The translations under genes and the position numbers were made by a program. Shown here piece after piece: positions 7,019 to 61,273 of a stretch of 64,000 nt of DNA. The stretch's first letter is position 1. Each line of letters begins with the position of its first letter. The stretch is from an uncultured Gammaproteobacteria bacterium. Its GTDB lineage: Bacteria; Patescibacteriota; Patescibacteriia; Magasanikbacterales; UBA922. The stretch covers positions 86,771 through 150,770 of the forward strand of contig CAYFPJ010000001.1 in NCBI GenBank assembly GCA_964344965.1, given 5' to 3'. The notes under the pieces are model-generated. The model saw only the letters and a list, made by a program, of their open reading frames with translations, searched no databases and was not told the origin of the DNA.

Positions 7019-8929
7019 TTAGACTTTCTTTTTTTTATTTCTTTTACGCCCGCTTTCATACCGTTCAATTATGGCTTCTTCTAGTTCTTGGTCAATCGTG
7101 ATTTGAGATCCTAGTTTTTCATGATCACCCCAAAAATGGAGGACCCATTCTGGATTTTCTTCCACCAACTCTTTCAAACACCGGCGAGGAGCTCTGGGAT
7201 CTATATTATATTTAGGACCCAAACTCCCAACAAATACTTTTTTATTTATGATTTCCTGAAAATATTCTAGATCTTCTATTAGTGTTTTGTTGATGCATAG
7301 GCGAATTCTGAAGTCACCTTTCATACGAAATTCTCTTAAGAGCGGAACATCTATTGGTAGTCCATAACCAAAATCACCTGCTCGTTCTGCTAGTATTCTC
7401 CTTTTTTTCATAATTTGCAAACAGGCTTTTTTAACACTAGGGACAGCTCTCTGTTCAGAGGTAGAGGATGTTTTCCTAACAAAATGACTTAATGGTGTAT
7501 AAGCATCTGTGATTTCAGGATAAGTCTGGTGTATGTAGGACTTTACTTCGAGGATTAGTTTTTCGGAATAGATGATAGTGTTGTGTCCGATAGTTTTTAT
7601 ATTTTCTGACCTTTTTGCCTCACTATATAATTTTGTTGCAACTTGATTTGCCAGCCTCTTGAACAGACTTCTATCTACACCAATTTCTTTTGCGGCCAAG
7701 CTCTCTTTTTGAAATCCTGGGTGTGACAGCTCTAGAGCCGACTCTACCCCATCAGGCAATTTTCTTGGAAATCTAGCTTGGATATCCTTTATTTCTTCAC
7801 CCAATGTAGATTCTGTCGGATTATTTTTATAGACATACTTTAGTAATTCATAGACACCTATATACGATATATCTAAGTGTCTACTAATTTTAAGTCGGGC
7901 AGTGTTGGTCTTGTATACTCCGTATTCGTGTAGATCCACCATCTGTTCACTTGTTTGAAGTGCTGTGTATAGATTATTACACAGTCGGAGGTCAGTTATT
8001 GGTGGCACTAAATGACTATCATATGGGATGTTGTCACCTTCTGCAAAATCAGGTATTTTTTCTTCTGTTTCAAAATTGACAGCCATCACAACAGTATTTC
8101 CTAGAGCTTCAAGAGGTGTTCTGTGACTTTTATTTGCATATATATCTTGCAGTCCATATGTCCCGCGAGCTTCTTGACGTTCTGTTTTATCTAGTTTGGC
8201 TAGATTTTTCCAATCATCCGGATGAGAGAGTCGATGGGCTACAATAGTTGCTAGCCCAACTTGATCAGATACAAAGATTGCTTTATAACGTCTTTCGTCA
8301 TGTTGGTCCGCTATGAGAAAGACAGTATACTCGTGTGTTCGCATAGTCTCACGACCAAGCTCTCGATTGAGTTCATCCACAGACTTTCCGTGCCTGTCTA
8401 CAAAGGTAATTCCGTTATCACTCAATGCTTTTTCTACGGCTTCTGTCTTTTTGAGTTCTCTGAATAACTCTTTTCCTCTTTTGCCTTCAGCTTTTGAAGA
8501 TGGGCCTGACCCGTTTTTAGTATCTGGTGGGAAGATAAAAAAATCAACATCATCAGACTCTTCTGGCGTCAATAGTTCGAACTGGTCAAGTTTTTTTTCT
8601 ACCAGGGTTTCGAAGTAAATTTTTATCTCTCGTTCATCAATTGTGGGTATCTGTTGATCTCCGTCTTCTGCAGTTTCTGACATGAATGTAGTGATATCTT
8701 GTTCTGTCACTGGGTAGATGCCATCTTCATACAGATCCATAAAATCAAAGGCGAAGCGTACTGCGTCAACAAGTGATATCTGATTACCTTGACTCCTAAT
8801 AATCAAGTGAAACTGTTCACTCATCTGGCTTGATAGTCTCCTGATTGTTTCTGTTCTTAATTTTTCTCTGTCTGCAGGACGTTTTTCATCAGGGATAGGA
8901 CGATGTGCTGCTTCTTGTCTGGTTGTCAT
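7019..8929 (-). CDS. hypothetical protein (636 aa), function unknown
   Basis: Long uninterrupted ORF with plausible codon usage and no motif I can assign with confidence. Confidence 0.5.
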   Translation of the reverse strand: MTTRQEAAHRPIPDEKRPADREKLRTETIRRLSSQMSEQFHLIIRSQGNQISLVDAVRFAFDFMDLYEDGIYPVTEQDITTFMSETAEDGDQQIPTIDEREIKIYFETLVEKKLDQFELLTPEESDDVDFFIFPPDTKNGSGPSSKAEGKRGKELFRELKKTEAVEKALSDNGITFVDRHGKSVDELNRELGRETMRTHEYTVFLIADQHDERRYKAIFVSDQVGLATIVAHRLSHPDDWKNLAKLDKTERQEARGTYGLQDIYANKSHRTPLEALGNTVVMAVNFETEEKIPDFAEGDNIPYDSHLVPPITDLRLCNNLYTALQTSEQMVDLHEYGVYKTNTARLKISRHLDISYIGVYELLKYVYKNNPTESTLGEEIKDIQARFPRKLPDGVESALELSHPGFQKESLAAKEIGVDRSLFKRLANQVATKLYSEAKRSENIKTIGHNTIIYSEKLILEVKSYIHQTYPEITDAYTPLSHFVRKTSSTSEQRAVPSVKKACLQIMKKRRILAERAGDFGYGLPIDVPLLREFRMKGDFRIRLCINKTLIEDLEYFQEIINKKVFVGSLGPKYNIDPRAPRRCLKELVEENPEWVLHFWGDHEKLGSQITIDQELEEAIIERYESGRKRNKKKKV

Positions 8930-8946
8930 ACTGTTCTTTAATGGAG

Positions 8947-10161
8947 TTAATTATAGATATGGTTGGGATTTGATAAGTTAGTCTTGATAGAACGCATAAT
9001 TAAGACATCTATTAGTATAGCAGAAGCCATGATGGCTAGTACAATCTGGAAGGCTGTGCTCGATATACTAGGCACAAAGAAAAATAATCCATAACCGACC
9101 ACTCGACTGGCAAAGACATAAATCCATTCTCTGATAACAATATATTCTACACGGTGATTTTTGTAATCTGGAATTTGGTGAAGCAAATTGTCGCGGTATG
9201 TTTTGGCTGGAATTTGAAGAAGTGGTAAGAAAATTTCTCGAGCAAATCCATAAAAGATATAAGTAAATAGAATGGGGAAGCCAACGAGAGTCATGGTAGC
9301 AATAAAAAATAATGAGCCACCAATAGTAAGAATAAATCTATACTTAGAATAAGGGACTTTTTTCCCAAGGAAAAGAACTACAATTATTCCAAAGAGAGAA
9401 AACAAGGAAAGCAGTCCTCCCAAATGTAGCTCACTATTTATAATATCAAAAATAAATACTGGCAATAGTCTTTCGATAGCACCTTTGTATCCAATGTTCC
9501 CAAAAAATCTGGCTAAGATTAGTTTTACGATATCTTTTTTTTGCCAGATTAATTTTAATGTTTTTCTATAATGGAGAGGAGGGGATTTGTGATTTTCAAC
9601 TTTTACAAATCCGATGAAGATTGAAAAAATATAAACTATGATGCTGATGATAAAAATATTACCATAACCAAGATTTAAAAAATTCAGTCCAATCGCTGCC
9701 CCTCCCAAGATAGGGGCAAAGATGGAGATACTAGTAGTGAGGGCTTGCATGGTCCCGTTGAAATTGCCACGGTTTTTGGTGTGAGTAGTTTCAAATTGAA
9801 GAAACAAGTAGCTAATCCAGTACATACCATTGAAAAATCCAATCATAGATCCTGTCAGAATAAGATGATTAGCCACATAGTCTTTTAGAATAAATAGAAT
9901 GAGATAAATAATTGAAGAACCAATAAGACTAAGTACTCTTGGGGTGTGGTGTTTGCCTTTTTTTACAACACTAGCAAAAAGGGTAAATGAAATGATGTGA
10001 GCCGTAATAAGAGCAATCGAATAAATAGCCAGAGATCTGAGTGAATTGGTTTCACCCCACAGAAAGACAACGAAAAATATATTGAAAATGGAGCGACCAA
10101 ACATTGCTAGAGAGTGCGATACAATCAGCCTTTGGACATTTTTACTGAGATTGTTATTCAT
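8947..10161 (-). CDS. polytopic membrane transporter, MFS-like
   Basis: 404 aa with about 12 hydrophobic segments. Confidence 0.5.
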   Translation of the reverse strand: MNNNLSKNVQRLIVSHSLAMFGRSIFNIFFVVFLWGETNSLRSLAIYSIALITAHIISFTLFASVVKKGKHHTPRVLSLIGSSIIYLILFILKDYVANHLILTGSMIGFFNGMYWISYLFLQFETTHTKNRGNFNGTMQALTTSISIFAPILGGAAIGLNFLNLGYGNIFIISIIVYIFSIFIGFVKVENHKSPPLHYRKTLKLIWQKKDIVKLILARFFGNIGYKGAIERLLPVFIFDIINSELHLGGLLSLFSLFGIIVVLFLGKKVPYSKYRFILTIGGSLFFIATMTLVGFPILFTYIFYGFAREIFLPLLQIPAKTYRDNLLHQIPDYKNHRVEYIVIREWIYVFASRVVGYGLFFFVPSISSTAFQIVLAIMASAILIDVLIMRSIKTNLSNPNHIYN

Positions 10162-11243: not shown

Positions 11244-12752
11244 TTAAGATATATAATGACAACCAATACTTTTTTCTCTCTCTAGTGCAGCTTCAGTAAT
11301 AAGTATTGCTACTGTATTTAAGTTTCGGAGCTCCAGTATTTCCTGATTGATTCCATTTTTATATATTTTTTCAACTTCTTCTTTCAATTTTTTTAATTTT
11401 TCCAAACTTTTTTTCATGTCTTTTTCATTCCTAACAATCCCAACATTTTCCCACATTGTTTTTTGAATATCAATTTTTAATTTCGTAATTTGTTGAGATT
11501 GTGTAGTCTCTGAAATTTGGTGATTGGTGGTTGGAAATTTTTTGGAAATTGTATCTTGTATCTTAGTTGCATATTTTTTTGCAGAATCGACTGCTCTGGC
11601 ACTAAATACCAAGCATTCCAATAAAGAGTTCGAAGCCAAACGATTGGCTCCATGCACTCCTGTATTAGCTACTTCTCCGAAGGCGTATAGTCCATCTAAG
11701 CTTGTCTTGCCATCATAATCAGTATGAATTCCTCCACAAACATAGTGAGCTGCGGGGGCGACAGGGATCATGTCTTGATCCATTTTTATACCATGCCACC
11801 AGAGTTGTTCGTAGATATAGGGAAAACGTTTTTTTATATAATTACTTCCTTTGTGGCGGATATCTAGCAAGACATGATCGCTTTTTGTTTCAAGCATTTC
11901 TGCATAGATTGCCCTAGAGACTATGTCACGAGGAGCAAGATCTTTATCTCCATGATATTTTTGCATGAATTTTTCACCATCAATATTTTTCAAGATACCA
12001 CCTTCTCCGCGTATTGTTTCAGAAATAAGGAAAGCTGGCTTGTCTTCTAGAGCTAGGACAGTAGGGTGAAATTGAATGAACTCCATGTCACGGATTTCAG
12101 CTCCAGCTCGCGCAGCCATGGCGACTCCATCTCCAGTGGCAATTTTGGGATTACAATTTCGGGCATAAATTTGTCCTGCACCTCCAGTAGCCACGATAGT
12201 GGCTTTGGCAAAAAATTGTTGTACCACATTTTTTTCTCCATCAAAGACTAGCGCACCGATACATTTTTTATCTTCTACAATCAGTTCAAAAGCAGTGTGT
12301 GATTCGAATGTGGTGATTTTCTCACTATGTCTCACTTGATGAAGAAGAGCTCGCTCTATTTCTTTTCCTGTAGCATCGTGGACATGGGCAATCCGCTTAT
12401 TGCTATGACCTCCTTCTTGAGTCAGACAAAGCTCTCCATTTTCTCTACTAAATCCGACTCCAATATTGATCAGATGTTCGATTTGGGCTGGGGCATTTTT
12501 TACCAGCAATTCCACAGCTTTTTTATCATTGATCTGACAACCAGCTTTCATGGTATCTTCTATGTGGCTAGCAAAACTATCGTGCTTGTCAAGCACTGCA
12601 GCTATACCACCTTGGGCGTAGTTGCTGTTGCTTTCCATTAATTCTTTTTTGGTGACGATTGCTACTGTGCCATGCTTACTTATTTCCAATGCAAAATTGA
12701 GGCCAGCTATTCCAGAGCCTATTACAAGAAAGTCGAATTGAAAATTGTTCAT
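11244..12752 (-). CDS. nadB: L-aspartate oxidase
   Basis: FAD-binding GSGIAGL N-terminus and a fumarate reductase/SdhA-like flavoprotein fold; it is adjacent to nadC and nadA. Confidence 0.85.
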   Translation of the reverse strand: MNNFQFDFLVIGSGIAGLNFALEISKHGTVAIVTKKELMESNSNYAQGGIAAVLDKHDSFASHIEDTMKAGCQINDKKAVELLVKNAPAQIEHLINIGVGFSRENGELCLTQEGGHSNKRIAHVHDATGKEIERALLHQVRHSEKITTFESHTAFELIVEDKKCIGALVFDGEKNVVQQFFAKATIVATGGAGQIYARNCNPKIATGDGVAMAARAGAEIRDMEFIQFHPTVLALEDKPAFLISETIRGEGGILKNIDGEKFMQKYHGDKDLAPRDIVSRAIYAEMLETKSDHVLLDIRHKGSNYIKKRFPYIYEQLWWHGIKMDQDMIPVAPAAHYVCGGIHTDYDGKTSLDGLYAFGEVANTGVHGANRLASNSLLECLVFSARAVDSAKKYATKIQDTISKKFPTTNHQISETTQSQQITKLKIDIQKTMWENVGIVRNEKDMKKSLEKLKKLKEEVEKIYKNGINQEILELRNLNTVAILITEAALEREKSIGCHYIS

Positions 12753-53035: not shown

Positions 53036-53042
53036 TATGCTA

Positions 53043-53116
53043 TGTGTGCGACAGGATTCGAACCTGCGACCTCCCTCATACCAAGAGGGCGCTCTATCCG
53101 CTAGAGCTACGCACAC
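53043..53116 (-). tRNA. tRNA-Thr (anticodon GGU)
   Basis: Minus strand: acceptor GTGTGCG/CGCACAC, D GCTC/GAGC, anticodon stem CCCTC/GAGGG with loop TTGGTAT, T-arm GCAGG TTCGAAT CCTGT, discriminator A. Confidence 0.8.
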
Positions 53117-53147
53117 AAACATGATGACCCCGCCTCAACGGCGAGTA

Positions 53148-53254
53148 TTGCGGGGGCAGGAGTCGAACCTGCGAGCCCTTGGAGAGTCTCGGTTTTGAAT
53201 CTCCAAGGCACCGGGTCATGAACCCGGCGGCCAAACCAGCTGGCGTTCCCCGCG
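53148..53254 (-). tRNA. initiator-like tRNA-Met (anticodon CAU) with an approximately 31-nt hairpin inserted in the variable region
   Basis: Minus strand: 5' CGCGGGG ... CCCCGCA A 3' as in E. coli tRNA-fMet, including the C1xA72 mismatch. Anticodon stem CCGGG/CCCGG with three G-C pairs and loop TTCATGA. T-arm GCAGG TTCGACT CCTGC. The extra hairpin CCTTGGAGA ... TCTCCAAGG lies between the anticodon and T arms. Total length is 107 nt. Confidence 0.55.
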
Positions 53255-54861: not shown

Positions 54862-55029
54862 TGATACTAATGACACGAATATTGAGTTGGAATAACACGA
54901 ATTTTACCACCCAAGCTGGGTGGTTTTTTGATACTACGGATTACGGATAATACGGATTTACGGATAGAAGACTGGTTGCCTTTTTTAAAAAATGGTTTAG
55001 AGTGTATACGCACTGAAGGGAGGTGCAAG

Positions 55030-55320
55030 ATGGCAGGATTCTGGGCGTCTGTGGCGGTGGCGACTGTGGTCGTTGTCGTCGTAAAGACGATCCTCTGGGT
55101 CCGAGAGGACCGCTTGCAGAAGAGGATCCTTGCGTTTCTTGAGACCGAGGAAGGGCAACTTTCCGACCTGGCAGAGATCACATCCGAGGTTATCCCGGCC
55201 GGGAAGAAGATGTACCGGGATCAGGTTCGAGTTGAGGAGTCCTTGAACACACTCCTCGACAAGAAAAAGATTTGGTACAATTGCGACTACGGGTACTCCG
55301 TCGTTAAGAAGGAGGACTGA
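55030..55320 (+). CDS. small hypothetical protein encoded in an anomalously GC-rich segment
   Basis: A GGAGG SD 7 nt upstream, an N-terminal hydrophobic stretch (VAVATVVVVVV) and a helical C-terminus. Its codon usage is GC-rich (GCG GTG GCG GTC), unlike neighbouring genes. Confidence 0.4.
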   Translation: MAGFWASVAVATVVVVVVKTILWVREDRLQKRILAFLETEEGQLSDLAEITSEVIPAGKKMYRDQVRVEESLNTLLDKKKIWYNCDYGYSVVKKED

Positions 55321-55599
55321 CATGCCCTGTCAACCCAACCTACGAATTTGCGGTTTCTCTCGTGGGTTGGCTGAGGAGGGGTCAGCATGGCATTTTCTCG
55401 ACCGATTTGGTCAGAGGAAACTGTAAATGCTTATCCGGGCCGTGGTCTGGAGGGGGTGTCGCGGCTCGGTCGAAGAACATTGGTTTTAGCCACTCTTTGC
55501 CACTTTTTGAAGTGGTTTTTGTATATTTTCTCATCGTAGGTAGAAAGTGCCTGCACTACGTAGCCCGACCGTAGGGGGGCGAAGCAGTGTGGATAAGTA

Positions 55600-55652
55600 T
55601 TGACACCTTATTTGAAAGTATGATATTATCACTCACAGTATTAGAGTGATAA
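55600..55652 (+). promoter_or_regulatory. hrcA promoter (TTGACA-17-ATATTA) with overlapping CIRCE-like operator TTATCACTC-N9-GAGTGATAA
   Basis: ttgaca at 55600-55605. The inverted repeat at 55626-55652 matches CIRCE (TTAGCACTC-N9-GAGTGCTAA) at 14 of 18 positions and sits immediately before the hrcA ATG. Confidence 0.6.
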
Positions 55653-55653
55653 T

Positions 55654-56334
55654 ATGCTAAGTCCTCGCAGAGAAAAACTTCTTCGATTGGTAATTGAGAA
55701 TTATATAGACACTGCAGAGCCAGTAGGCTCTAGTTTTTTGGCCCAAAAAGGAGGCTTGAAAGTTAGTGGTGCCACGATCAGGAATGAGATGCGTGTTCTC
55801 GAAGAATTAGGATATCTTACCCATCCTCATACTTCTTCTGGACGTATTCCGACTGAGATTGGGTATCAATATTATGTAGAGAACATCATGGAAGTGCCTT
55901 CTGTAGACAAAGATATGATTAGAAAGGTAGAGACTGTAGTAAAGGAAGAGTCAGATATGCGCACCCAAGTAAAGCAAGTAGCCAAGTTTACTGCCGAGCA
56001 TTTGCAAAATTCTATTATCGTAGCTTTTGGTCCTCACTCTGTTTATTACACTGGCATTTCATATTTGTTTGCCCAGCCAGAATTTCGAGATTCAGCCTAT
56101 ACTGTCAATATTTCAAAAATTTTTGACCACTGTGAAGACAATTTGGAAGCTATGTATGACCTCATATCTGAAGGGAAAACAGAAGTACTAATAGGGCAAA
56201 AAAATCCTTTTGGCAAATCATGTGGACTGGTGGGGACTAGAGTAGGAGATACATTGTTTACAGTCCTAGCACCGCTTCGTATGAATTATGCCAAAGCAGT
56301 CGGACTTCTTACTTATATAAATTCTGCAAAATAA
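55654..56334 (+). CDS. hrcA: heat-inducible transcription repressor HrcA (short form)
   Basis: The N-terminal wHTH LVIENYIDTAEPVGSSFLAQK...GATIRNEMRVLEELGYL is typical of HrcA. Confidence 0.85.
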   Translation: MLSPRREKLLRLVIENYIDTAEPVGSSFLAQKGGLKVSGATIRNEMRVLEELGYLTHPHTSSGRIPTEIGYQYYVENIMEVPSVDKDMIRKVETVVKEESDMRTQVKQVAKFTAEHLQNSIIVAFGPHSVYYTGISYLFAQPEFRDSAYTVNISKIFDHCEDNLEAMYDLISEGKTEVLIGQKNPFGKSCGLVGTRVGDTLFTVLAPLRMNYAKAVGLLTYINSAK

Positions 56335-56335
56335 C

Positions 56336-57235
56336 ATGACAAATGATATAGATAACAAAACACAAAAAAAGACACGGGATATTTCAATAGTTACAGGAGT
56401 TTTTGTTGAAAATGAAGATAATGAAGTATTGTTTGTAAAAATGCCAAAATGGGGAGACAGATGGGGTATTCCGGGAGGGCATCTTGATAGAGGTGAGGCA
56501 CTAGAAAAGGCTGCACTCCGTGAATTGAAAGAAGAGACAGGAGTTGATGCAGACAAGGCTGAATATATTGGATACACAGAGATGGCAGAGCCAAAAGATT
56601 TCCACAAAAGCAAACATTTTATTAGCTTTCAATTTAAAGTAAAAGTAAAAGGTAGACCGAAGCTTAAATTAGAAAAGAGAGAATTGACTGATCATCGGTG
56701 GATGACACTAGAAGATGCCCGAAAGCAAGATGATCTAAATTCCATCATGGTGAAGACTTTGGAGATGATGTCAGATCAGGTGAAAGAAGAAAACATTGAT
56801 TATAAAGATAAATGGCTTCGTGCTCAAGCAGACTATTCCAATCTACAAAAAGAAATTTCTGAAAAAAGAAGCCAATGGGCAGAGATGAGTGAGTGGCAGA
56901 TTCTCGAAGAGTTTATCCCAGTCTATGATAATTTCAAAAAAGCATTTGACAATGATCAGCGAGCAATGATCAACGATCAGAAGCTACAGAATTGGGTTAT
57001 CGGGGTAGAATATATTAAAAAACAATTTTCGGACGTACTTGCAAGTCATGGTGTTGAAGAGATAGAAACAATCGGGGAAACATTTGATCCAAATTTTCAT
57101 GAGTGCATGAGTGAAGAAAGTTCAGATGAGCATGAAGACGGAGCGATCATTCGGGAAGTAAGTTCTGGGTATAAGAAAGGGGGGCGGGTATTGAAAGTTG
57201 CGGGTGTGGTTCTCAATAAAAAAAATAAAGAATAG
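56336..57235 (+). CDS. grpE: NUDIX hydrolase domain fused to nucleotide-exchange factor GrpE
   Basis: Residues about 45-68, GGHLDRGEALEKAALRELKEETGV, form a perfect Nudix box (Gx5Ex7REUxEExGU). The C-terminal 145 aa (WLRAQADYSNLQKEISEKR, FIPVYDNFKKAF, GETFDPNFHE, GYKKGGRVLKVAGVVL) align with GrpE. It is a single continuous ORF. Confidence 0.8.
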   Translation: MTNDIDNKTQKKTRDISIVTGVFVENEDNEVLFVKMPKWGDRWGIPGGHLDRGEALEKAALRELKEETGVDADKAEYIGYTEMAEPKDFHKSKHFISFQFKVKVKGRPKLKLEKRELTDHRWMTLEDARKQDDLNSIMVKTLEMMSDQVKEENIDYKDKWLRAQADYSNLQKEISEKRSQWAEMSEWQILEEFIPVYDNFKKAFDNDQRAMINDQKLQNWVIGVEYIKKQFSDVLASHGVEEIETIGETFDPNFHECMSEESSDEHEDGAIIREVSSGYKKGGRVLKVAGVVLNKKNKE

Positions 57236-57364: not shown

Positions 57365-57823
57365 ATGTCATTAATACGTTGGTCACCAAATTGGGACCCA
57401 TTTCGAGAGATGGAAGAGATGATGAATCGTCTTCCTGCTCTCTCTGGTTCTTCCTTGCCATCAAAAGGATTTGTGCCCGCTATGGATGTCTATGAGACAA
57501 AAGACTCTGTAGTCGCAGAAACTACACTTCCTGGAGTGCGTCCAGAGGATGTCGAAGTAAGTGTCGAGGATGGGATGATCACTATCCAAGGTGAAACAAA
57601 CAAAGAGCGAGAAGTGGAAGAGAAAAATTATTATCGCAAAGAAGTTCGTTCTGGATCATTCTTTCGTCAAGTACCTCTGCCAGTTGCTGTTCTAGAAGAA
57701 AAAGTGACAGCAGAGTTTGATGGTGGTGTGCTAAGGGTCACTTGTCCAAAGGTTGGAAAAAAGAAAGAAGTGAAAAAGATTAAGATTGCGGTGAAGAAAA
57801 AAAAAGAAGTAACTAGTAATTAG
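57365..57823 (+). CDS. Hsp20/alpha-crystallin family small heat-shock protein
   Basis: An ACD core (PAMDVYETKDSVVAETTLPGVRPEDVEVSVEDGMITIQGE) and a C-terminal IKI-like motif. Confidence 0.85.
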   Translation: MSLIRWSPNWDPFREMEEMMNRLPALSGSSLPSKGFVPAMDVYETKDSVVAETTLPGVRPEDVEVSVEDGMITIQGETNKEREVEEKNYYRKEVRSGSFFRQVPLPVAVLEEKVTAEFDGGVLRVTCPKVGKKKEVKKIKIAVKKKKEVTSN

Positions 57824-57922: not shown

Positions 57923-58062
57923 TTTTATAACTAACTAAAAATATGCCAAAAATATTAGGAATCTTCCTACGCTCTCCGCTGCGCTCCGAGCTTCGGAAGG
58001 ACAAGTCGACTTTAATTATAACTAACTAAAAAATATGCCAAAAATATTAGGAATTGATTTAG
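57923..58062 (+). repeat. duplication of the dnaK ribosome-binding site and first seven codons (two copies about 92 nt apart) flanking a GC-rich hairpin insert
   Basis: TTATAACTAACTAAAAATATGCCAAAAATATTAGGAAT at 57923-57962 and again at 58015-58056, with the insert CTTCCTACGCTCTCCGCTGCGCTCCGAGCTTCGGAAGG between them. The upstream copy opens a 27-codon ORF ending TAA 6 nt before the dnaK ATG. Confidence 0.7.
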
Positions 58063-59996
58063 GAACAACAAACAGTTGTATGGCCATCACAGAAGGTGGT
58101 CAACCCAAGGTCCTTGAAAATAAGGAAGGAAATAGGACTACACCATCTATGGTGGCAATAAGTAAGACTGGTGAGCGCCTGGTCGGTCAGCTAGCAAAGC
58201 GCCAAGCTGTGACCAATCCTGGAAATACACTATTCTCTATAAAACGTTTGATTGGACGCCGTTTTGAGGACAAAGAAGTGCAGGAAGTGATAAAGCACGC
58301 TCCTTACAAGATTGTCAAAGACGGTGAAAAAGTGAAGGTCACCATGGGTGACAAAGACTACACTCCTCAAGAAATCAGCGCCATGGTCTTGCAAAAGCTG
58401 ATTGCTGATGCCAAAGAAAAAACTGGTGAAAATATTGAGGAAATTGTCGTGACAGTCCCAGCTTACTTTGACGATGCTCAAAGACAGGCCACCAAAGATG
58501 CTGGGACCATTGCTGGAGTGAAAGTCAGTCGTGTCATCAATGAGCCGACTGCAGCAGCATTTGCTTATGGATTTGACAAGAAAGGTGAACAGAAGATCGT
58601 TGTCTATGATCTAGGTGGTGGCACATTTGATGTCTCAGTTCTTGAGATTTCTCACGACGCTGAGACAGACGCCGCTACAGTAGAAGTGCTCTCAACTCAC
58701 GGTGACACCCATCTTGGTGGTGATGATTTTGACAAAGCAATTATTGAGTGGATTCTCGAAGAATTCAAGAAATCAGAAGGAATTGACCTTTCCAATGATC
58801 CATTGTCTCTACAGCGAGTCAAAGATGCTGCTGAGAAGGCCAAAATTGAGCTCTCTAGCACTCCAGAGACAGAAATCAATGAACCATTCATCACCCAAGG
58901 AAACGAAGGTCCAAAGCACCTAAACATGAAAATCTCTCGTTCTAAGCTAGAGGAGATCGTTAGTGAATTGGTAGAGAAGACTATGGGTCCAGTGAGAGAA
59001 GCTCTCAAAGAAGCCAGTGTTGATAAAAATGCTATCAATGAAATCATCATGGTCGGTGGTATGACTCGTATGCCACTAGTCCAAAAGAAGGTGGAAGAAT
59101 TTTTTGGCAAAAAGCCAAATGTCAGTGTCAATCCAGATGAAGTGGTAGCGACAGGTGCTGCTATCCAAGCTGGTCAGCTCCAAGGTGATCTTGGTAAAGA
59201 TATTCTTCTTCTTGATGTCACTCCGCTTTCATTTGGTATCGAGACTCTCGGTGGTGTATCTACCAAACTGATTGAAAAAAATACTACTATCCCTACCAAC
59301 AAGACTCAGGTATTTTCTACAGCAACTGACAATCAGCCTAGTGTAGAGATCCATGTTTTGCAAGGTGAGCGTGAGATGTCTGGCGACAACAAATCTCTGG
59401 GTAGATTCATGCTCGATGGTATTCCGCCAGCACCACGTGGAGTTCCTCAGATCGAAGTGAAGTTTGACATCGATGCCAATGGAATTTTGAACGTAAGTGC
59501 CAAGGACAAGGGTACTGGTAAGGAGCAAAGTATTCGTATCGAAGCAAGCTCTGGACTTAGTGATGAAGAAATAGAAAAGATGAAAAAAGATGCAGAGCTT
59601 CATGCCGAAGAAGATAAGAAAAAACGTGAAATGATTGATGTCAAAAACACCGCAGACACCATGGTATACACTACAGAAAAAATGATGAAAGACGTGGAAG
59701 AGAAAAAAATCGACATCACAGATGAAGAAAAGAAAGCTGTAGAAGATGCACTCGCAAAAATGAAAGAATTGAAAGATGGAGAAGACATGGAAGCTATCAA
59801 AGCAGCTTCTGAAGAGCTTTCCAAAGCTGGACAAGCAGTCGGTATGAAGATGTATCAACAAGAGCAGGCCAATTCTGCTGAAGGCGGAGCTGAAGCAGGA
59901 AAGCAAGAGAGTGGCGATGCCCCAAAGGATGAAAAAAAGGATGAGGCTGTAGAAGGAGAGGTTGTGGATGAAGGAGAGCAAGAGGCTGGAAAATAG
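58035..59996 (+). CDS. dnaK: molecular chaperone DnaK (Hsp70)
   Basis: 653 aa, with [18 protein letters not shown] and the rest of the canonical Hsp70 sequence. Confidence 0.95.
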
Positions 59997-60099: not shown

Positions 60100-60546
60100 A
60101 TGAACTATTTTTTTAGGATTGGAATGTTAGTTATTTGCCTGTCTTTTTTTATGGGTTGTGGTAATGCACAAAATATACCAGACACTTCTGTCACACCAGA
60201 AGATGAGGTAGAATTAGATTATCTACCTGAACAAGCCCCAATTATGATGGAAAATGATGAGGGTATCTTTTCTTTTGTGGAGGTAGTCGAGCCAGAGCAG
60301 ATTGTTGGCAATTGGCAAGCCGTGGAAGGTGCTTCCTATGAAGAAATTATTTTTGACGTTGATGGGACTTATAGTACTTTTCTAAATCAAAAACCTTTTG
60401 TAGAGGGTACTTGGCAGATAGCGAAAGGATTTTTGATAATGGCTGACTCTGTCCATGGAAATAATATTTATACTGATGTAGCAATAGAAGAAAATATGTT
60501 TGTAGTTGAAAATGATGATGATAAAATAGTTTGGCAAAAATTATAA
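60100..60546 (+). CDS. hypothetical lipoprotein
   Basis: Signal peptide with a lipobox (FFMGC); 148 aa. Confidence 0.5.
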   Translation: MNYFFRIGMLVICLSFFMGCGNAQNIPDTSVTPEDEVELDYLPEQAPIMMENDEGIFSFVEVVEPEQIVGNWQAVEGASYEEIIFDVDGTYSTFLNQKPFVEGTWQIAKGFLIMADSVHGNNIYTDVAIEENMFVVENDDDKIVWQKL

Positions 60547-60577
60547 ATCTTATAATTATTTTTTAGATTATAATCAT

Positions 60578-61273
60578 ATGTTCAAGTTGATTAAGATAGT
60601 TTTAATGGTCGGTGTTTTGGCAGTGGCTTGGTGGCTTTTGTCTCCACTTTTCATTGACAAAGAGGTGGATGATGAGCTAGATCCAAAGGTAGAGTCAGCG
60701 ATCAATTTTGCGCTTGAAAAAACTGGCGAAGGACTCCAAAAAGCTGGAGAAAAAATCAAAGATACAGATGTGGCGGAAATAAAAAAGAAAATAGCAGAGC
60801 TCAAAGAAGATGCCTCTACAAACTTAGAAGACCAGATCAAGAGTGAGGAAGAGATGGCAGAATTTGCAATAGAGATGAGCAAGATGGAAGATAAGGAAAT
60901 GAGTGAAGATGTGATGGATAGTGGAGAGCCAAAAGTTTTATCTACGGGTGAATTTGTCAGTGTAGGTCATACCGGCAGTGGTCAGGTAAAGTTGATAGAT
61001 CTTGGAGGTGACGCAGGCTCTGTTCTTAGATTTGAGAATCTTGATGTTTCCAATGGGCCTGATTTGAGGGTGTATCTATCTAAGAATGGTGATGTTACTA
61101 CCAGCAAGAATTTGGGAGATTTTGTAGAACTTGGACAATTGAAAGGGAATAAAGGAAATCAGAATTATGTTATTCCTAGCAGTATCAATGTTGATCAATA
61201 TAATTCTGTTGTGATATATTGTAAACCGTTTAAGGTGGTATTTAATACTGCTAATTTGGAAAAATCTCAGTAG
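60578..61273 (+). CDS. secreted protein with C-terminal DM13-like domain
   Basis: An N-terminal TM or signal segment and an acidic region. The C-terminal block GEFVSVGHTGSGQVKLI...NGPDLRVYLS resembles DM13. The assignment is tentative. Confidence 0.45.
   Translation: MFKLIKIVLMVGVLAVAWWLLSPLFIDKEVDDELDPKVESAINFALEKTGEGLQKAGEKIKDTDVAEIKKKIAELKEDASTNLEDQIKSEEEMAEFAIEMSKMEDKEMSEDVMDSGEPKVLSTGEFVSVGHTGSGQVKLIDLGGDAGSVLRFENLDVSNGPDLRVYLSKNGDVTTSKNLGDFVELGQLKGNKGNQNYVIPSSINVDQYNSVVIYCKPFKVVFNTANLEKSQ

Follow-up and report, generated by a model that had tools for sequence, protein, structure and literature searches.

In the heat-shock operon hrcA-grpE-dnaK of a Patescibacterium, GrpE is encoded as the second half of a fusion protein whose first half is a Nudix hydrolase domain. 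We describe this fusion from a 64-kb stretch of DNA (hereafter the window), which comprises positions 86,771 to 150,770 of contig CAYFPJ010000001.1 (assembly GCA_964344965.1) and is filed as an uncultured Gammaproteobacteria bacterium, whereas the GTDB lineage is Magasanikbacterales. The fusion gene is the sole GrpE gene of the operon, and no second GrpE was detected in the window. With moderate confidence, we read the protein from its sequence as a bifunctional GrpE under control of HrcA and its operator CIRCE (controlling inverted repeat of chaperone expression), which would combine ordinary nucleotide exchange with a tethered MutT-like Nudix pyrophosphohydrolase that would clear a stress-linked nucleotide. 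The Nudix domain stands in place of GrpE's disordered N-terminal tail, and related fusions are widespread in Patescibacteria.

A single gene encodes a Nudix domain and GrpE

A first-pass annotation of this DNA had described a single 299-codon open reading frame (ORF) that starts 1 nt past the hrcA stop codon, lies in the hrcA-grpE-dnaK operon, and encodes a perfect Nudix box followed by GrpE in its second half. Our analysis bears out this description. The ORF is uninterrupted. Just one base (C, 56335) separates its ATG from the stop codon of hrcA (TAA, 56332-56334), and the coordinates of both the ORF and the junction agree. Using Pfam, we detected the NUDIX domain (PF00293) at residues 19-138 (E 1.9e-26, 93 bits, cutoff 21) and GrpE (PF01025) at residues 137-295 (E 2.9e-37, 128.4 bits, cutoff 25.8), where the GrpE match covers nearly the whole profile (positions 11-165 of 165). 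The Nudix box is found within GGHLDRGEALEKAALRELKEETGV (residues 47-70), of which G48-V70 agrees with the consensus GX5EX7REUXEEXGU at all positions. The genes hrcA, hsp20 and dnaK were found as neighbours. Furthermore, the same protein is encoded, with no difference, on independently assembled contigs from the runs ERR2281802 (ENA) and ERR2281803 (Logan).

We also considered signs of a split gene and rejected them. Protein P0084, a relative that seemed to contain only the Nudix domain, reads through '...NVDYKDKWLRAQ' and then diverges at the end of a chimeric contig; it is a truncated fusion. P0050, which also seemed to be Nudix-only, comes from a 736-bp contig and is a truncated fusion as well. 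An internal start for a separate GrpE could be placed at M144/M145, which follow GGAG at a spacing of 0-3 nt, but these methionines are not conserved in relatives.

The GrpE half is complete and lacks the typical disordered tail

To describe the two halves, we used an AlphaFold2 model that was built with 33 family members and has a mean predicted local distance difference test (pLDDT) of 89.5 (domain limits in Table 1). In the model, an unbroken helix extends over residues 136-205, with the pLDDT falling to 67 at residues 151-160. It is followed by a second helix (215-237) and by the strands of the beta-domain (across 240-294), and the GrpE parts have a pLDDT of 86-96. The GrpE half aligns with residues 49-194 of Escherichia coli GrpE, 77-209 of the Geobacillus kaustophilus protein and 26-171 of the Thermus thermophilus protein. 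In the alignment with E. coli, D147 of the fusion protein corresponds to residue 49 and G223 to residue 122. The residues that are invariant in 33 relatives are A163, A165, D166, Y167, N169, L170, P195, V196, F200, G223, T245, G247, E256 and G278. A Foldseek search matched the GrpE chains 9a81_A and 9bls_C. The GrpE equivalog models of NCBIfam score at most 92 bits, below their cutoffs of at least 137, because the lineage is divergent. The approximately 155 C-terminal residues are a complete GrpE with stalk helix, four-helix bundle and beta-domain. Judging from its sequence, this part should dimerise and open the nucleotide-binding domain of DnaK, as in other bacteria.

The part of GrpE that is missing is found at the N-terminus. 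The disordered N-terminal tail of GrpE binds to DnaK at the canonical substrate site of its substrate-binding domain (SBD) and promotes substrate release; it comprises residues 1-33 in E. coli GrpE, including an IIM motif, and residues 1-42 in Mycobacterium tuberculosis GrpE (PMC12915176; PMC10803776). The fusion protein is devoid of the typical disordered tail with a hydrophobic SBD-binding motif (17-IIM-19 in E. coli), a usual feature of the family although not a defining one, and residues 1-15 show no evident hydrophobic motif of the IIM type. The thermosensor of GrpE is the long helical stalk (PMC12987570). The first-pass annotation had suggested that the N-terminal thermosensor, or paired helix, is replaced in the fusion. 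We find that the stalk is kept, as seen from the alignment to E. coli residues 49-194, the coverage of the Pfam profile and the unbroken helix 136-205. As the stalk with the thermosensor is retained, we conclude that the Nudix domain replaces the disordered acidic tail and not the thermosensor.

The nucleotide cleft of DnaK contacts the beta-domain of GrpE (PMC10803776), that is, the other end of the protein. The Nudix domain would thus be located beside the docking site of the SBD, at about 75 Å (a stalk of about 50 residues) from the end at the nucleotide cleft. This distance makes a direct capture of ADP unlikely.

Across the family, Nudix core and stalk motif are separated by a spacer that varies between 17 and 43 residues. 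In 21 of 85 fusion spacers, a CxxC motif ('KKCKNCE'-like) is present directly before the GrpE stalk (e.g. P0020, P0025, P0027, P0032, P0037 and P0128). The motif also occurs in the plain GrpE P0078 and is absent from the window protein. Paired CxxC motifs in a GrpE dimer could make one metal site.

The Nudix half is very probably an active enzyme

Based on its sequence, we consider the Nudix domain very probably to be an active pyrophosphohydrolase. Six residues (G48, E54, R62, E63, E66 and E67) do not vary among 33 fusion proteins, which are 34-65% identical to the window protein, and the Nudix box is intact in most of the 94 proteins examined. For the closest pair for which DNA is available (P0011 and P0007), we estimated the ratio of nonsynonymous to synonymous substitutions (dN/dS) with the Nei-Gojobori method. 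We obtained 0.097 for the Nudix half (dS 0.81) and 0.083 for the GrpE half (dS 0.51), which indicates that both halves are under purifying selection. In the model, the alpha/beta/alpha sandwich has a pLDDT of 95-98 over residues 21-140. The structural comparison with Foldseek gave the best match of the Nudix domain to 3grn_B (template modelling (TM) score 0.85, probability 1.0, root-mean-square deviation 2.3 Å), followed by 4kyx (TM 0.81) and by NudI, Ndx1 and the Aquifex diadenosine tetraphosphate (Ap4A) hydrolase (TM 0.74-0.77). The top curated families, MutT, NudB, NudG and NudI, are of the type that acts on nucleoside triphosphates (NTPs).

The fusion is old and is absent from many close relatives

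The first-pass annotation had proposed looking for the same fusion in related genomes, and many two-domain proteins are indeed found, in Magasanikbacteria and in other Patescibacteria. A first search of 5.8 billion proteins yielded about 40 clusters in which both Pfam domains are present (278-323 aa, 36-64% identical). A further 59 two-domain clusters (50% identity) came from an exhaustive HMMER search that covered 1.84 billion cluster representatives. Among the proteins fetched, there were 94 and later 137 two-domain proteins. Named members belong to Candidatus Magasanikbacteria, Candidatus Moranbacteria and 'Patescibacteria group bacterium', and their database annotation reads only 'nucleotide exchange factor GrpE'. 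The fusions are always located in the slot hrcA -> X::grpE -> (hsp20) -> dnaK. For instance, P0025 (GCA_900089805.1), which is 41% identical to the window protein, is found in the same gene order yidC-SPFH-hrcA-fusion-hsp20-dnaK-dnaJ.

Close relatives with identical synteny encode a plain GrpE with an acidic low-complexity tail of 35-58 residues. These plain tails meet the stalk at the same point as the Nudix domain, namely at '(E)VNVDYKDKWLRAQADY'. Furthermore, the plain GrpE P0031 has its first ten residues (MTHNTDNKTQ) in common with fusion members. Thus, in the sub-clade of P0031, the Nudix domain behaves as an insertion or deletion within the tail. The existence of sister species with a plain acidic tail shows that the Nudix module is dispensable and hence an accessory.

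To trace the history of the fusion, we inferred a DnaK tree from 74 loci and 625 columns, which includes 13 distinct fusion-bearing genomes. The fusion genomes are dispersed among the plain ones, with 9-12 state changes in 100 of 100 bootstraps. We rejected truncated gene calls as the source of this interleaving, as just one plain locus (L018) is found at a contig edge. Among fusion-bearing genomes, Nudix distances correlate with those of DnaK (Mantel r 0.55, p 5e-4); p-distances average 0.61 for Nudix, 0.46 for GrpE and 0.24 for DnaK. The large Nudix distances that track DnaK imply that the fusion is old. We favour a history in which the fusion arose once, long ago, passed down by vertical descent and was lost repeatedly; recombination among relatives that exchanged fused and plain alleles may have contributed.

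Free-standing Nudix proteins are distant from the domain in the fusions. The nearest ones score at most 73 bits on the hidden Markov model (HMM) of the family, whereas 89 of the 137 fusion domains score at least 100 bits, and the identity of the nearest ones to the Nudix domain does not exceed 42% over 64% of its length. In two genomes with a plain GrpE, a free-standing Nudix gene is located near the chaperone genes: at locus L047, from a sister of a fusion-bearing genome, it follows directly after dnaK (8611-9051), and at locus L052 it follows after dnaJ (approximately 11839-12270). We rejected these genes as split partners of the fusion, as they belong to another subtype (26-46 bits on the family HMM) and occur at a frequency no higher than expected by chance. 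The two genes could represent a relocation of the function.

Several other observations were made in the course of these searches. Tandem Nudix-Nudix-GrpE proteins of about 450 aa are represented by P0143, P0155 and P0164; P0143, found on contigs as long as 391 kb, is flanked by hrcA and hsp20-dnaK. P0231 (288 aa) contains the C-terminal domain of HrcA and then GrpE in one polypeptide, which is either a read-through fusion of hrcA and grpE or a sequencing frameshift at the 1-nt gene junction. Lastly, a Patescibacteria-type hrcA-grpE-hsp20-dnaK locus is present at L011, L017, L023, L025, L027-L030, L033, L038, L040, L043, L046 and others. These loci come from third party annotation (TPA) metagenome bins whose titles read 'uncultured Gammaproteobacteria bacterium'. 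On the DnaK tree they cluster with Magasanikbacteria, and the titles look mislabelled.

Other modules occupy the same site of GrpE

Pfam scans of long GrpE matches revealed that Nudix is not the only module at the N-terminus of GrpE. Next to the tandem Nudix proteins, we found HD-GrpE and Nudix-DUF1653-GrpE proteins. HD-GrpE is represented by three clusters (P0183, P0296 and P0297) that are about 52% identical to each other, and DUF1653-GrpE by at least five clusters; P0358, P0356, P0375, P0395 and P0230 are proteins of this type. DUF1653 (PF07866) is a domain of about 60 aa with no known enzymatic function. P0207 combines a degenerate Nudix domain, DUF1653 and GrpE in one protein. Both HD-GrpE and DUF1653-GrpE are encoded in the slot hrcA -> X::grpE -> (hsp20) -> dnaK, and the added modules are attached directly before the stalk motif '...W.RA.ADY.N'.

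The HD part retains the metal ligands H...HD...D and is closest to Lin1889 (3b57) and to Bacillus subtilis YpgQ (5dqv). YpgQ is a Mn-dependent (d)NTP pyrophosphohydrolase that prefers dGTP and dATP (PMC8177086). On the GrpE tree, HD-GrpE is found within a Falkowbacteria/Kuenenbacteria-like group, which comprises mostly plain GrpEs and a few Nudix-GrpEs, whereas DUF1653-GrpE clusters with Nudix-GrpE. We thus rejected a clean non-orthologous displacement of Nudix by HD, as HD-GrpE sits among mostly plain GrpEs in another sub-lineage; this position suggests an independent acquisition. The presence of two unrelated nucleotide-pyrophosphohydrolase folds at one site is the strongest hint that it is the chemistry, and not the fold, that gets linked to GrpE.

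The operon has a predicted HrcA/CIRCE promoter

The operon is preceded by a sigma-70-like promoter, which is the best site in a scan of 4.9 kb and whose function we predict from its consensus match (Table 1). A CIRCE-like inverted repeat shares bases with the -10 hexamer and stops a single nucleotide short of the hrcA ATG. It is the sole match in the window, and none of 100 shuffled sequences contained a match. The canonical CIRCE is TTAGCACTC-N9-GAGTGCTAA, of which the repeat in the window is a symmetric G-to-T variant. A CIRCE repeat at the promoter and hrcA directly downstream are the arrangement of an HrcA-CIRCE regulon, so that repression by HrcA is predicted. There is no convincing plus-strand terminator between hrcA and the fusion gene. 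The leader before the hrcA ATG has a length of about 15-20 nt and no obvious Shine-Dalgarno sequence.

Table 1. Features of the chaperone operon and of the fusion gene in the window, and genes with other modules at related loci (positions at the latter refer to the locus named)
Feature	Position	Strand	Description
Promoter, sigma-70-like, TTGACA-18 nt-TATTAT, TG before -10	55600..55629	+	11/12 consensus positions
CIRCE-like HrcA operator, TTATCACTC-N9-GAGTGATAA	55626..55652	.	Perfect inverted repeat
hrcA, short form, 226 aa	55654..56334	+	Pfam HrcA_C 2.3e-9; TIGR00331 2.8e-46, under its cutoff
nudix::grpE fusion gene	56336..57235	+	ATG start, 299 codons and stop
N-terminal peptide, residues 1-15 (MTNDIDNKTQKKTRD)	56336..56380	+	Polar; low confidence, pLDDT ~54
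Nudix hydrolase domain, residues 16-135	56381..56740	+	Pfam PF00293; alpha/beta/alpha; pLDDT 95-98
Nudix box, G48-V70 (GHLDRGEALEKAALRELKEETGV)	56477..56545	+	Six catalytic residues invariant in 33 fusion proteins
Last Nudix helix, spacer and GrpE long stalk helix, residues 136-186, including the conserved motif DYKDKWLRAQADYSNLQKE	56741..56893	+	Model
GrpE four-helix-bundle helices and C-terminal beta-domain, residues 187-299	56894..57232	+	Pfam GrpE, model
hsp20 (small heat-shock protein)	57365..57823	+	Pfam HSP20 5.2e-20; same position in relatives
dnaK	58035..59996	+	Pfam HSP70 3.4e-247
dnaJ, 367 aa	61985..63088	+	Downstream end of the conserved chaperone cluster
HD-GrpE genes	L087 6001-6918; L088 807-1724
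DUF1653-GrpE gene (P0358)	L089 6001-6618

The hrcA gene encodes a short protein. HrcA has 225-247 aa in the window and at loci L003, L004, L087 and L089, whereas the TIGR00331 model has 338 positions; both ends of the short HrcA match the model and the middle is missing. A compact HrcA looks like a feature of the whole lineage.

Upstream of hrcA, yidC and an SPFH gene are found. The dnaJ gene of the window is the gene with the domains DnaJ, DnaJ_C and CXXCXGXG at locus L002 (7050-8153), which derives from the same genome. Between dnaK and dnaJ (60100-61273), the window contains an unannotated 148-aa protein and a DM13-domain protein, which have equivalents at L002 and L004. This pair of small genes is kept at several Magasanikbacteria loci, and DUF3467 is found instead in others. 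The intergenic segment of 280 nt upstream of the hrcA promoter (55321-55600, plus strand) has a GC content of 0.51, compared to a mean of 0.39 for the window, and folds better than 200 of 200 shuffled sequences (z = -2.84); a GC-rich stretch extends over approximately 54990-55520. No Rfam family was found in the GC-rich intergenic segments. The segment is adjoined by a 130-aa ORF (54928-55320), with no Pfam hit recorded. Further upstream, a tRNA-like match of 107 nt on the minus strand (53148-53254; RF00005, 33.9 bits, gathering threshold 29) is located beside tRNA-Thr (53042-53117). ARAGORN made no call here, and the match, which appears with permissive Rfam settings alone, may be a tRNA with a long insertion.

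A bifunctional GrpE as the favoured function

We propose the following function for the fusion protein. The gene would be transcribed together with hrcA from one HrcA/CIRCE promoter, and its translation would be coupled to that of hrcA. With the shared promoter and the coupling, the hydrolase would match the DnaK machine in timing and amount. The GrpE part would carry out ordinary nucleotide exchange on DnaK, and the GrpE dimer would display a pair of adjacent Nudix domains where the stalk ends, near the docking site of the SBD. There, the Nudix domain would remove a stress-linked nucleotide; candidates are dinucleoside polyphosphates such as Ap4A and (d)NTPs that are damaged or non-canonical. 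Ap4A binds and cross-links to DnaK, GroEL and ClpB, and apaH mutants are hypersensitive to heat (PMC10148737). The ADP that is released by DnaK is probably not the substrate. The protein has lost the tail by which GrpE competitively displaces substrates from DnaK, so that a changed release of substrates is probable, either as a side effect or as a second function.

Several of our results weigh against this proposal. With regard to catalysis, the Nudix box is degenerate in about 14 of the 94 members, which nonetheless retain the domain. Together with DUF1653 at the same site, these members suggest that catalysis is not the sole selectable trait there. The repeated loss of the module suggests that its benefit is weak or depends on the niche. 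The case for convergence rests on three HD-GrpE clusters, which are not nested inside Nudix-GrpE, and the promoter and the operator are predicted from consensus matches.

The substrate is a further point on this side of the balance, as the PDB sequence search, Foldseek, NCBIfam and the X-loop rule disagree, so that we rejected a substrate assignment. PDB sequence matches are weak, and the PDB and Foldseek neighbours cover MutT, ADP-ribose, diadenosine polyphosphate (ApnA), NudI/NudJ and GDP-mannose enzymes. None of the NCBIfam Nudix subfamilies scores above its cutoff; the best are MutT, NudB, YtkD, NudC, RppH, NudG and NudI at 30-39 bits. An assignment to MutT/8-oxo-dGTP diphosphatase was rejected, as the models TIGR00586 (34.8 bits, cutoff 97.9) and NF008044 (37.2 bits, cutoff 148) are among the best matches and are far under threshold. 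According to the X-loop rule, a Tyr (ApnA hydrolases) or a Pro (ADP-ribose enzymes) is found approximately 16-17 residues past the Nudix box (PMC5389931). In the window protein, position +16 is a Pro (P86), but this column contains P, S, Q or D in relatives; we thus rejected an ADP-ribose diphosphatase as well. An aromatic residue is conserved in most members at +19 (F89, Tyr in most relatives), where the register differs by two from the ApnA rule, and the NCBIfam search returned no match of the Nudix domain to a curated ApnA family.

Alternatives to a bifunctional GrpE

It is possible, although we consider it unlikely, that the Nudix domain is mainly a non-catalytic module that regulates the SBD of DnaK in the tail's stead. 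A folded domain at this position could act by steric hindrance, as a ligand-binding nucleotide sensor that tunes exchange or release, or as a heat-labile domain that unfolds into a pseudo-substrate in cis. This explanation would account for the position of the domain in the exact place of the SBD-binding tail, which is needed for substrate release, and agrees with residues 1-15 being devoid of an evident IIM-like motif. Some of the members with a degenerate box have diverged so far that Pfam no longer recognises a Nudix domain in them (P0189 and P0191), DUF1653 at the same site has no known enzymatic function, and non-enzymatic Nudix domains form a recognised class (PMC5389931). What a non-catalytic role does not explain is the invariance of all six catalytic residues of the box in 33 proteins, a dN/dS of about 0.1 and the retention of the metal ligands in the HD variant. 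These observations are expected if catalysis has been selected in most lineages.

We regard it as improbable that the tethered hydrolase acts directly on a nucleotide of the DnaK cycle at the chaperone complex, be it released ADP, Ap4A or damaged ATP/ADP, which would make exchange irreversible or protect the chaperone under stress. The first-pass annotation had gone in this direction with the suggestion that ADP hydrolysis is coupled to nucleotide exchange on DnaK. The location of the domain at the far, N-terminal tip of the stalk near the SBD, at the estimated 75 Å from the nucleotide cleft, does not fit such a coupling, nor does the spacer, whose length is not conserved, and sister species have the same DnaK operon without the Nudix domain. 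Moreover, the diffusion of ADP would far outpace the turnover of a Nudix enzyme, so that a local depletion seems physically implausible. That two unrelated pyrophosphohydrolase folds (Nudix and YpgQ-like HD) are found at one GrpE position does speak for a direct role, but the HD relative YpgQ favours dGTP and dATP over ADP or Ap4A. Additional points in its favour are the above-mentioned effects of Ap4A on chaperones and of apaH mutations, the ApnA hydrolases within the Nudix superfamily together with the weak matches to Ndx1 and to the Aquifex Ap4A hydrolase, the conserved aromatic in the X-loop region, and the long life of the fusion under purifying selection.

A neutral fusion by genome streamlining appears very unlikely to us. 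In this scenario, the stop codon of a Nudix gene that by chance lay between hrcA and grpE disappeared, and the two halves are independent of each other apart from their co-transcription. The genomes are small and tightly packed, with 1 nt between the hrcA stop and the start of the grpE gene, the module was lost many times, and free-standing Nudix genes are found near dnaK/dnaJ at L047 and L052; the latter, however, are the weak matches that are no more frequent than expected by chance. Separate adjacent genes, which the first-pass annotation had named as a finding that would speak against a genuine fusion, were not encountered: in the relatives examined, no Nudix gene is located between hrcA and grpE, and P0084, as described above, is a truncated fusion. 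The N-terminal residues common to fused and plain forms point to an insertion within the tail, rather than to an upstream gene, in that sub-clade. Neutrality is also difficult to reconcile with the persistence of the fusion over a mean Nudix p-distance of 0.61 and with the independent fusions of HD and DUF1653 at the same site.

Lastly, an artefact of assembly or a frameshift that joins two genes, which had been raised as a possibility by the first-pass annotation, can be dismissed, as the same ORF was recovered from two separately assembled runs, about 40 further two-domain clusters were found in the first search, more than 90 distinct two-domain proteins are known from NCBI, JGI, ENA and Logan assemblies, and purifying selection extends along the whole ORF.

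Comparison to known proteins

When comparing the fusion protein to canonical GrpE (E. coli 1DKG, G. kaustophilus 4ANI, T. thermophilus 3A6M and the cryo-EM structure of M. tuberculosis DnaK-GrpE), we find that stalk, bundle and beta-domain are shared over residues ~147-295, as are the conserved motifs and the location of the gene between hrcA and dnaK. Canonical GrpE has a disordered acidic tail that binds the SBD, whereas the fusion has a folded enzyme domain of 120 residues instead. The Nudix domain resembles small MutT-like Nudix proteins (3grn, 4kyx, 3r03, NudI 6dt3, Ndx1 1vc8 and the Aquifex Ap4A hydrolase 3i7u) in its perfect box and its fold of about 130 residues (TM 0.74-0.85, 22-29% identity). 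These proteins are free-standing, whereas the last helix of the domain in the window continues into the GrpE stalk. HD-GrpE and DUF1653-GrpE share the operon slot and the attachment point with Nudix-GrpE, and HD is also predicted to be a nucleotide pyrophosphohydrolase; however, the folds are unrelated, the proteins are found in different sub-lineages, and they are far rarer than Nudix-GrpE.

The only described GrpE with an added domain that we found in our literature search is All4144 from Anabaena sp. PCC 7120, which also has an extra folded domain at the N-terminus of a functional dimeric GrpE (bioRxiv 10.1101/2025.04.14.648684). Its N-terminal helix-turn-helix (HTH) domain confers an additional activity, and nucleotide exchange is not lost when this domain is removed (bioRxiv 10.1101/2025.04.14.648684). 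All4144 is a cyanobacterial paralogue with a DNA-binding HTH of 67 residues, whereas here a hydrolase is found on the sole GrpE of the operon of a Patescibacterium. Our search, which included reviews on GrpE, retrieved no account of a Nudix, HD or other enzyme fused to GrpE, and as far as this search shows, HD-GrpE is likewise undescribed. We conclude that Nudix-GrpE is real, widespread and has gone unremarked, and its frequent loss argues for an accessory role.

Implications

Recent work (2024-2026) has revealed that the GrpE tail is not passive but binds the SBD of DnaK and drives substrate release. A natural family that has an enzyme in the tail's place, with an unrelated enzyme of similar chemistry elsewhere, is an evolutionary experiment on the tail position, for which the presence and absence of the module among sister species provides natural controls. 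More than 100 database entries that are labelled just 'nucleotide exchange factor GrpE' are predicted to be bifunctional. If the domain is merely a co-expressed house-cleaning enzyme, our result amounts to a modest annotation correction for Patescibacteria.

A broader interpretation, which we put forward as speculative and rather unlikely, is that the N-terminus of patescibacterial GrpE is a docking site for nucleotide-pyrophosphohydrolases, which would have been acquired once and anciently in the case of Nudix and independently in the case of the YpgQ-like HD. The docked enzymes would locally remove an inhibitory or damaged adenine or guanine nucleotide (Ap4A or other dinucleoside tetraphosphates, Np4N, or an oxidised (d)NTP) for the Hsp70 cycle of energy-poor, salvage-dependent cells, or they would serve as a nucleotide-gated substitute for the tail. 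Nudix-GrpE offers a testable handle on the old unexplained link of stress nucleotides (Ap4A and damaged NTPs) to Hsp70. If the docking interpretation is true, nucleotide quality control or alarmone turnover would be physically tied to chaperone cycling, a connection at which the binding of Ap4A to DnaK has long hinted and for which no mechanism has been given.

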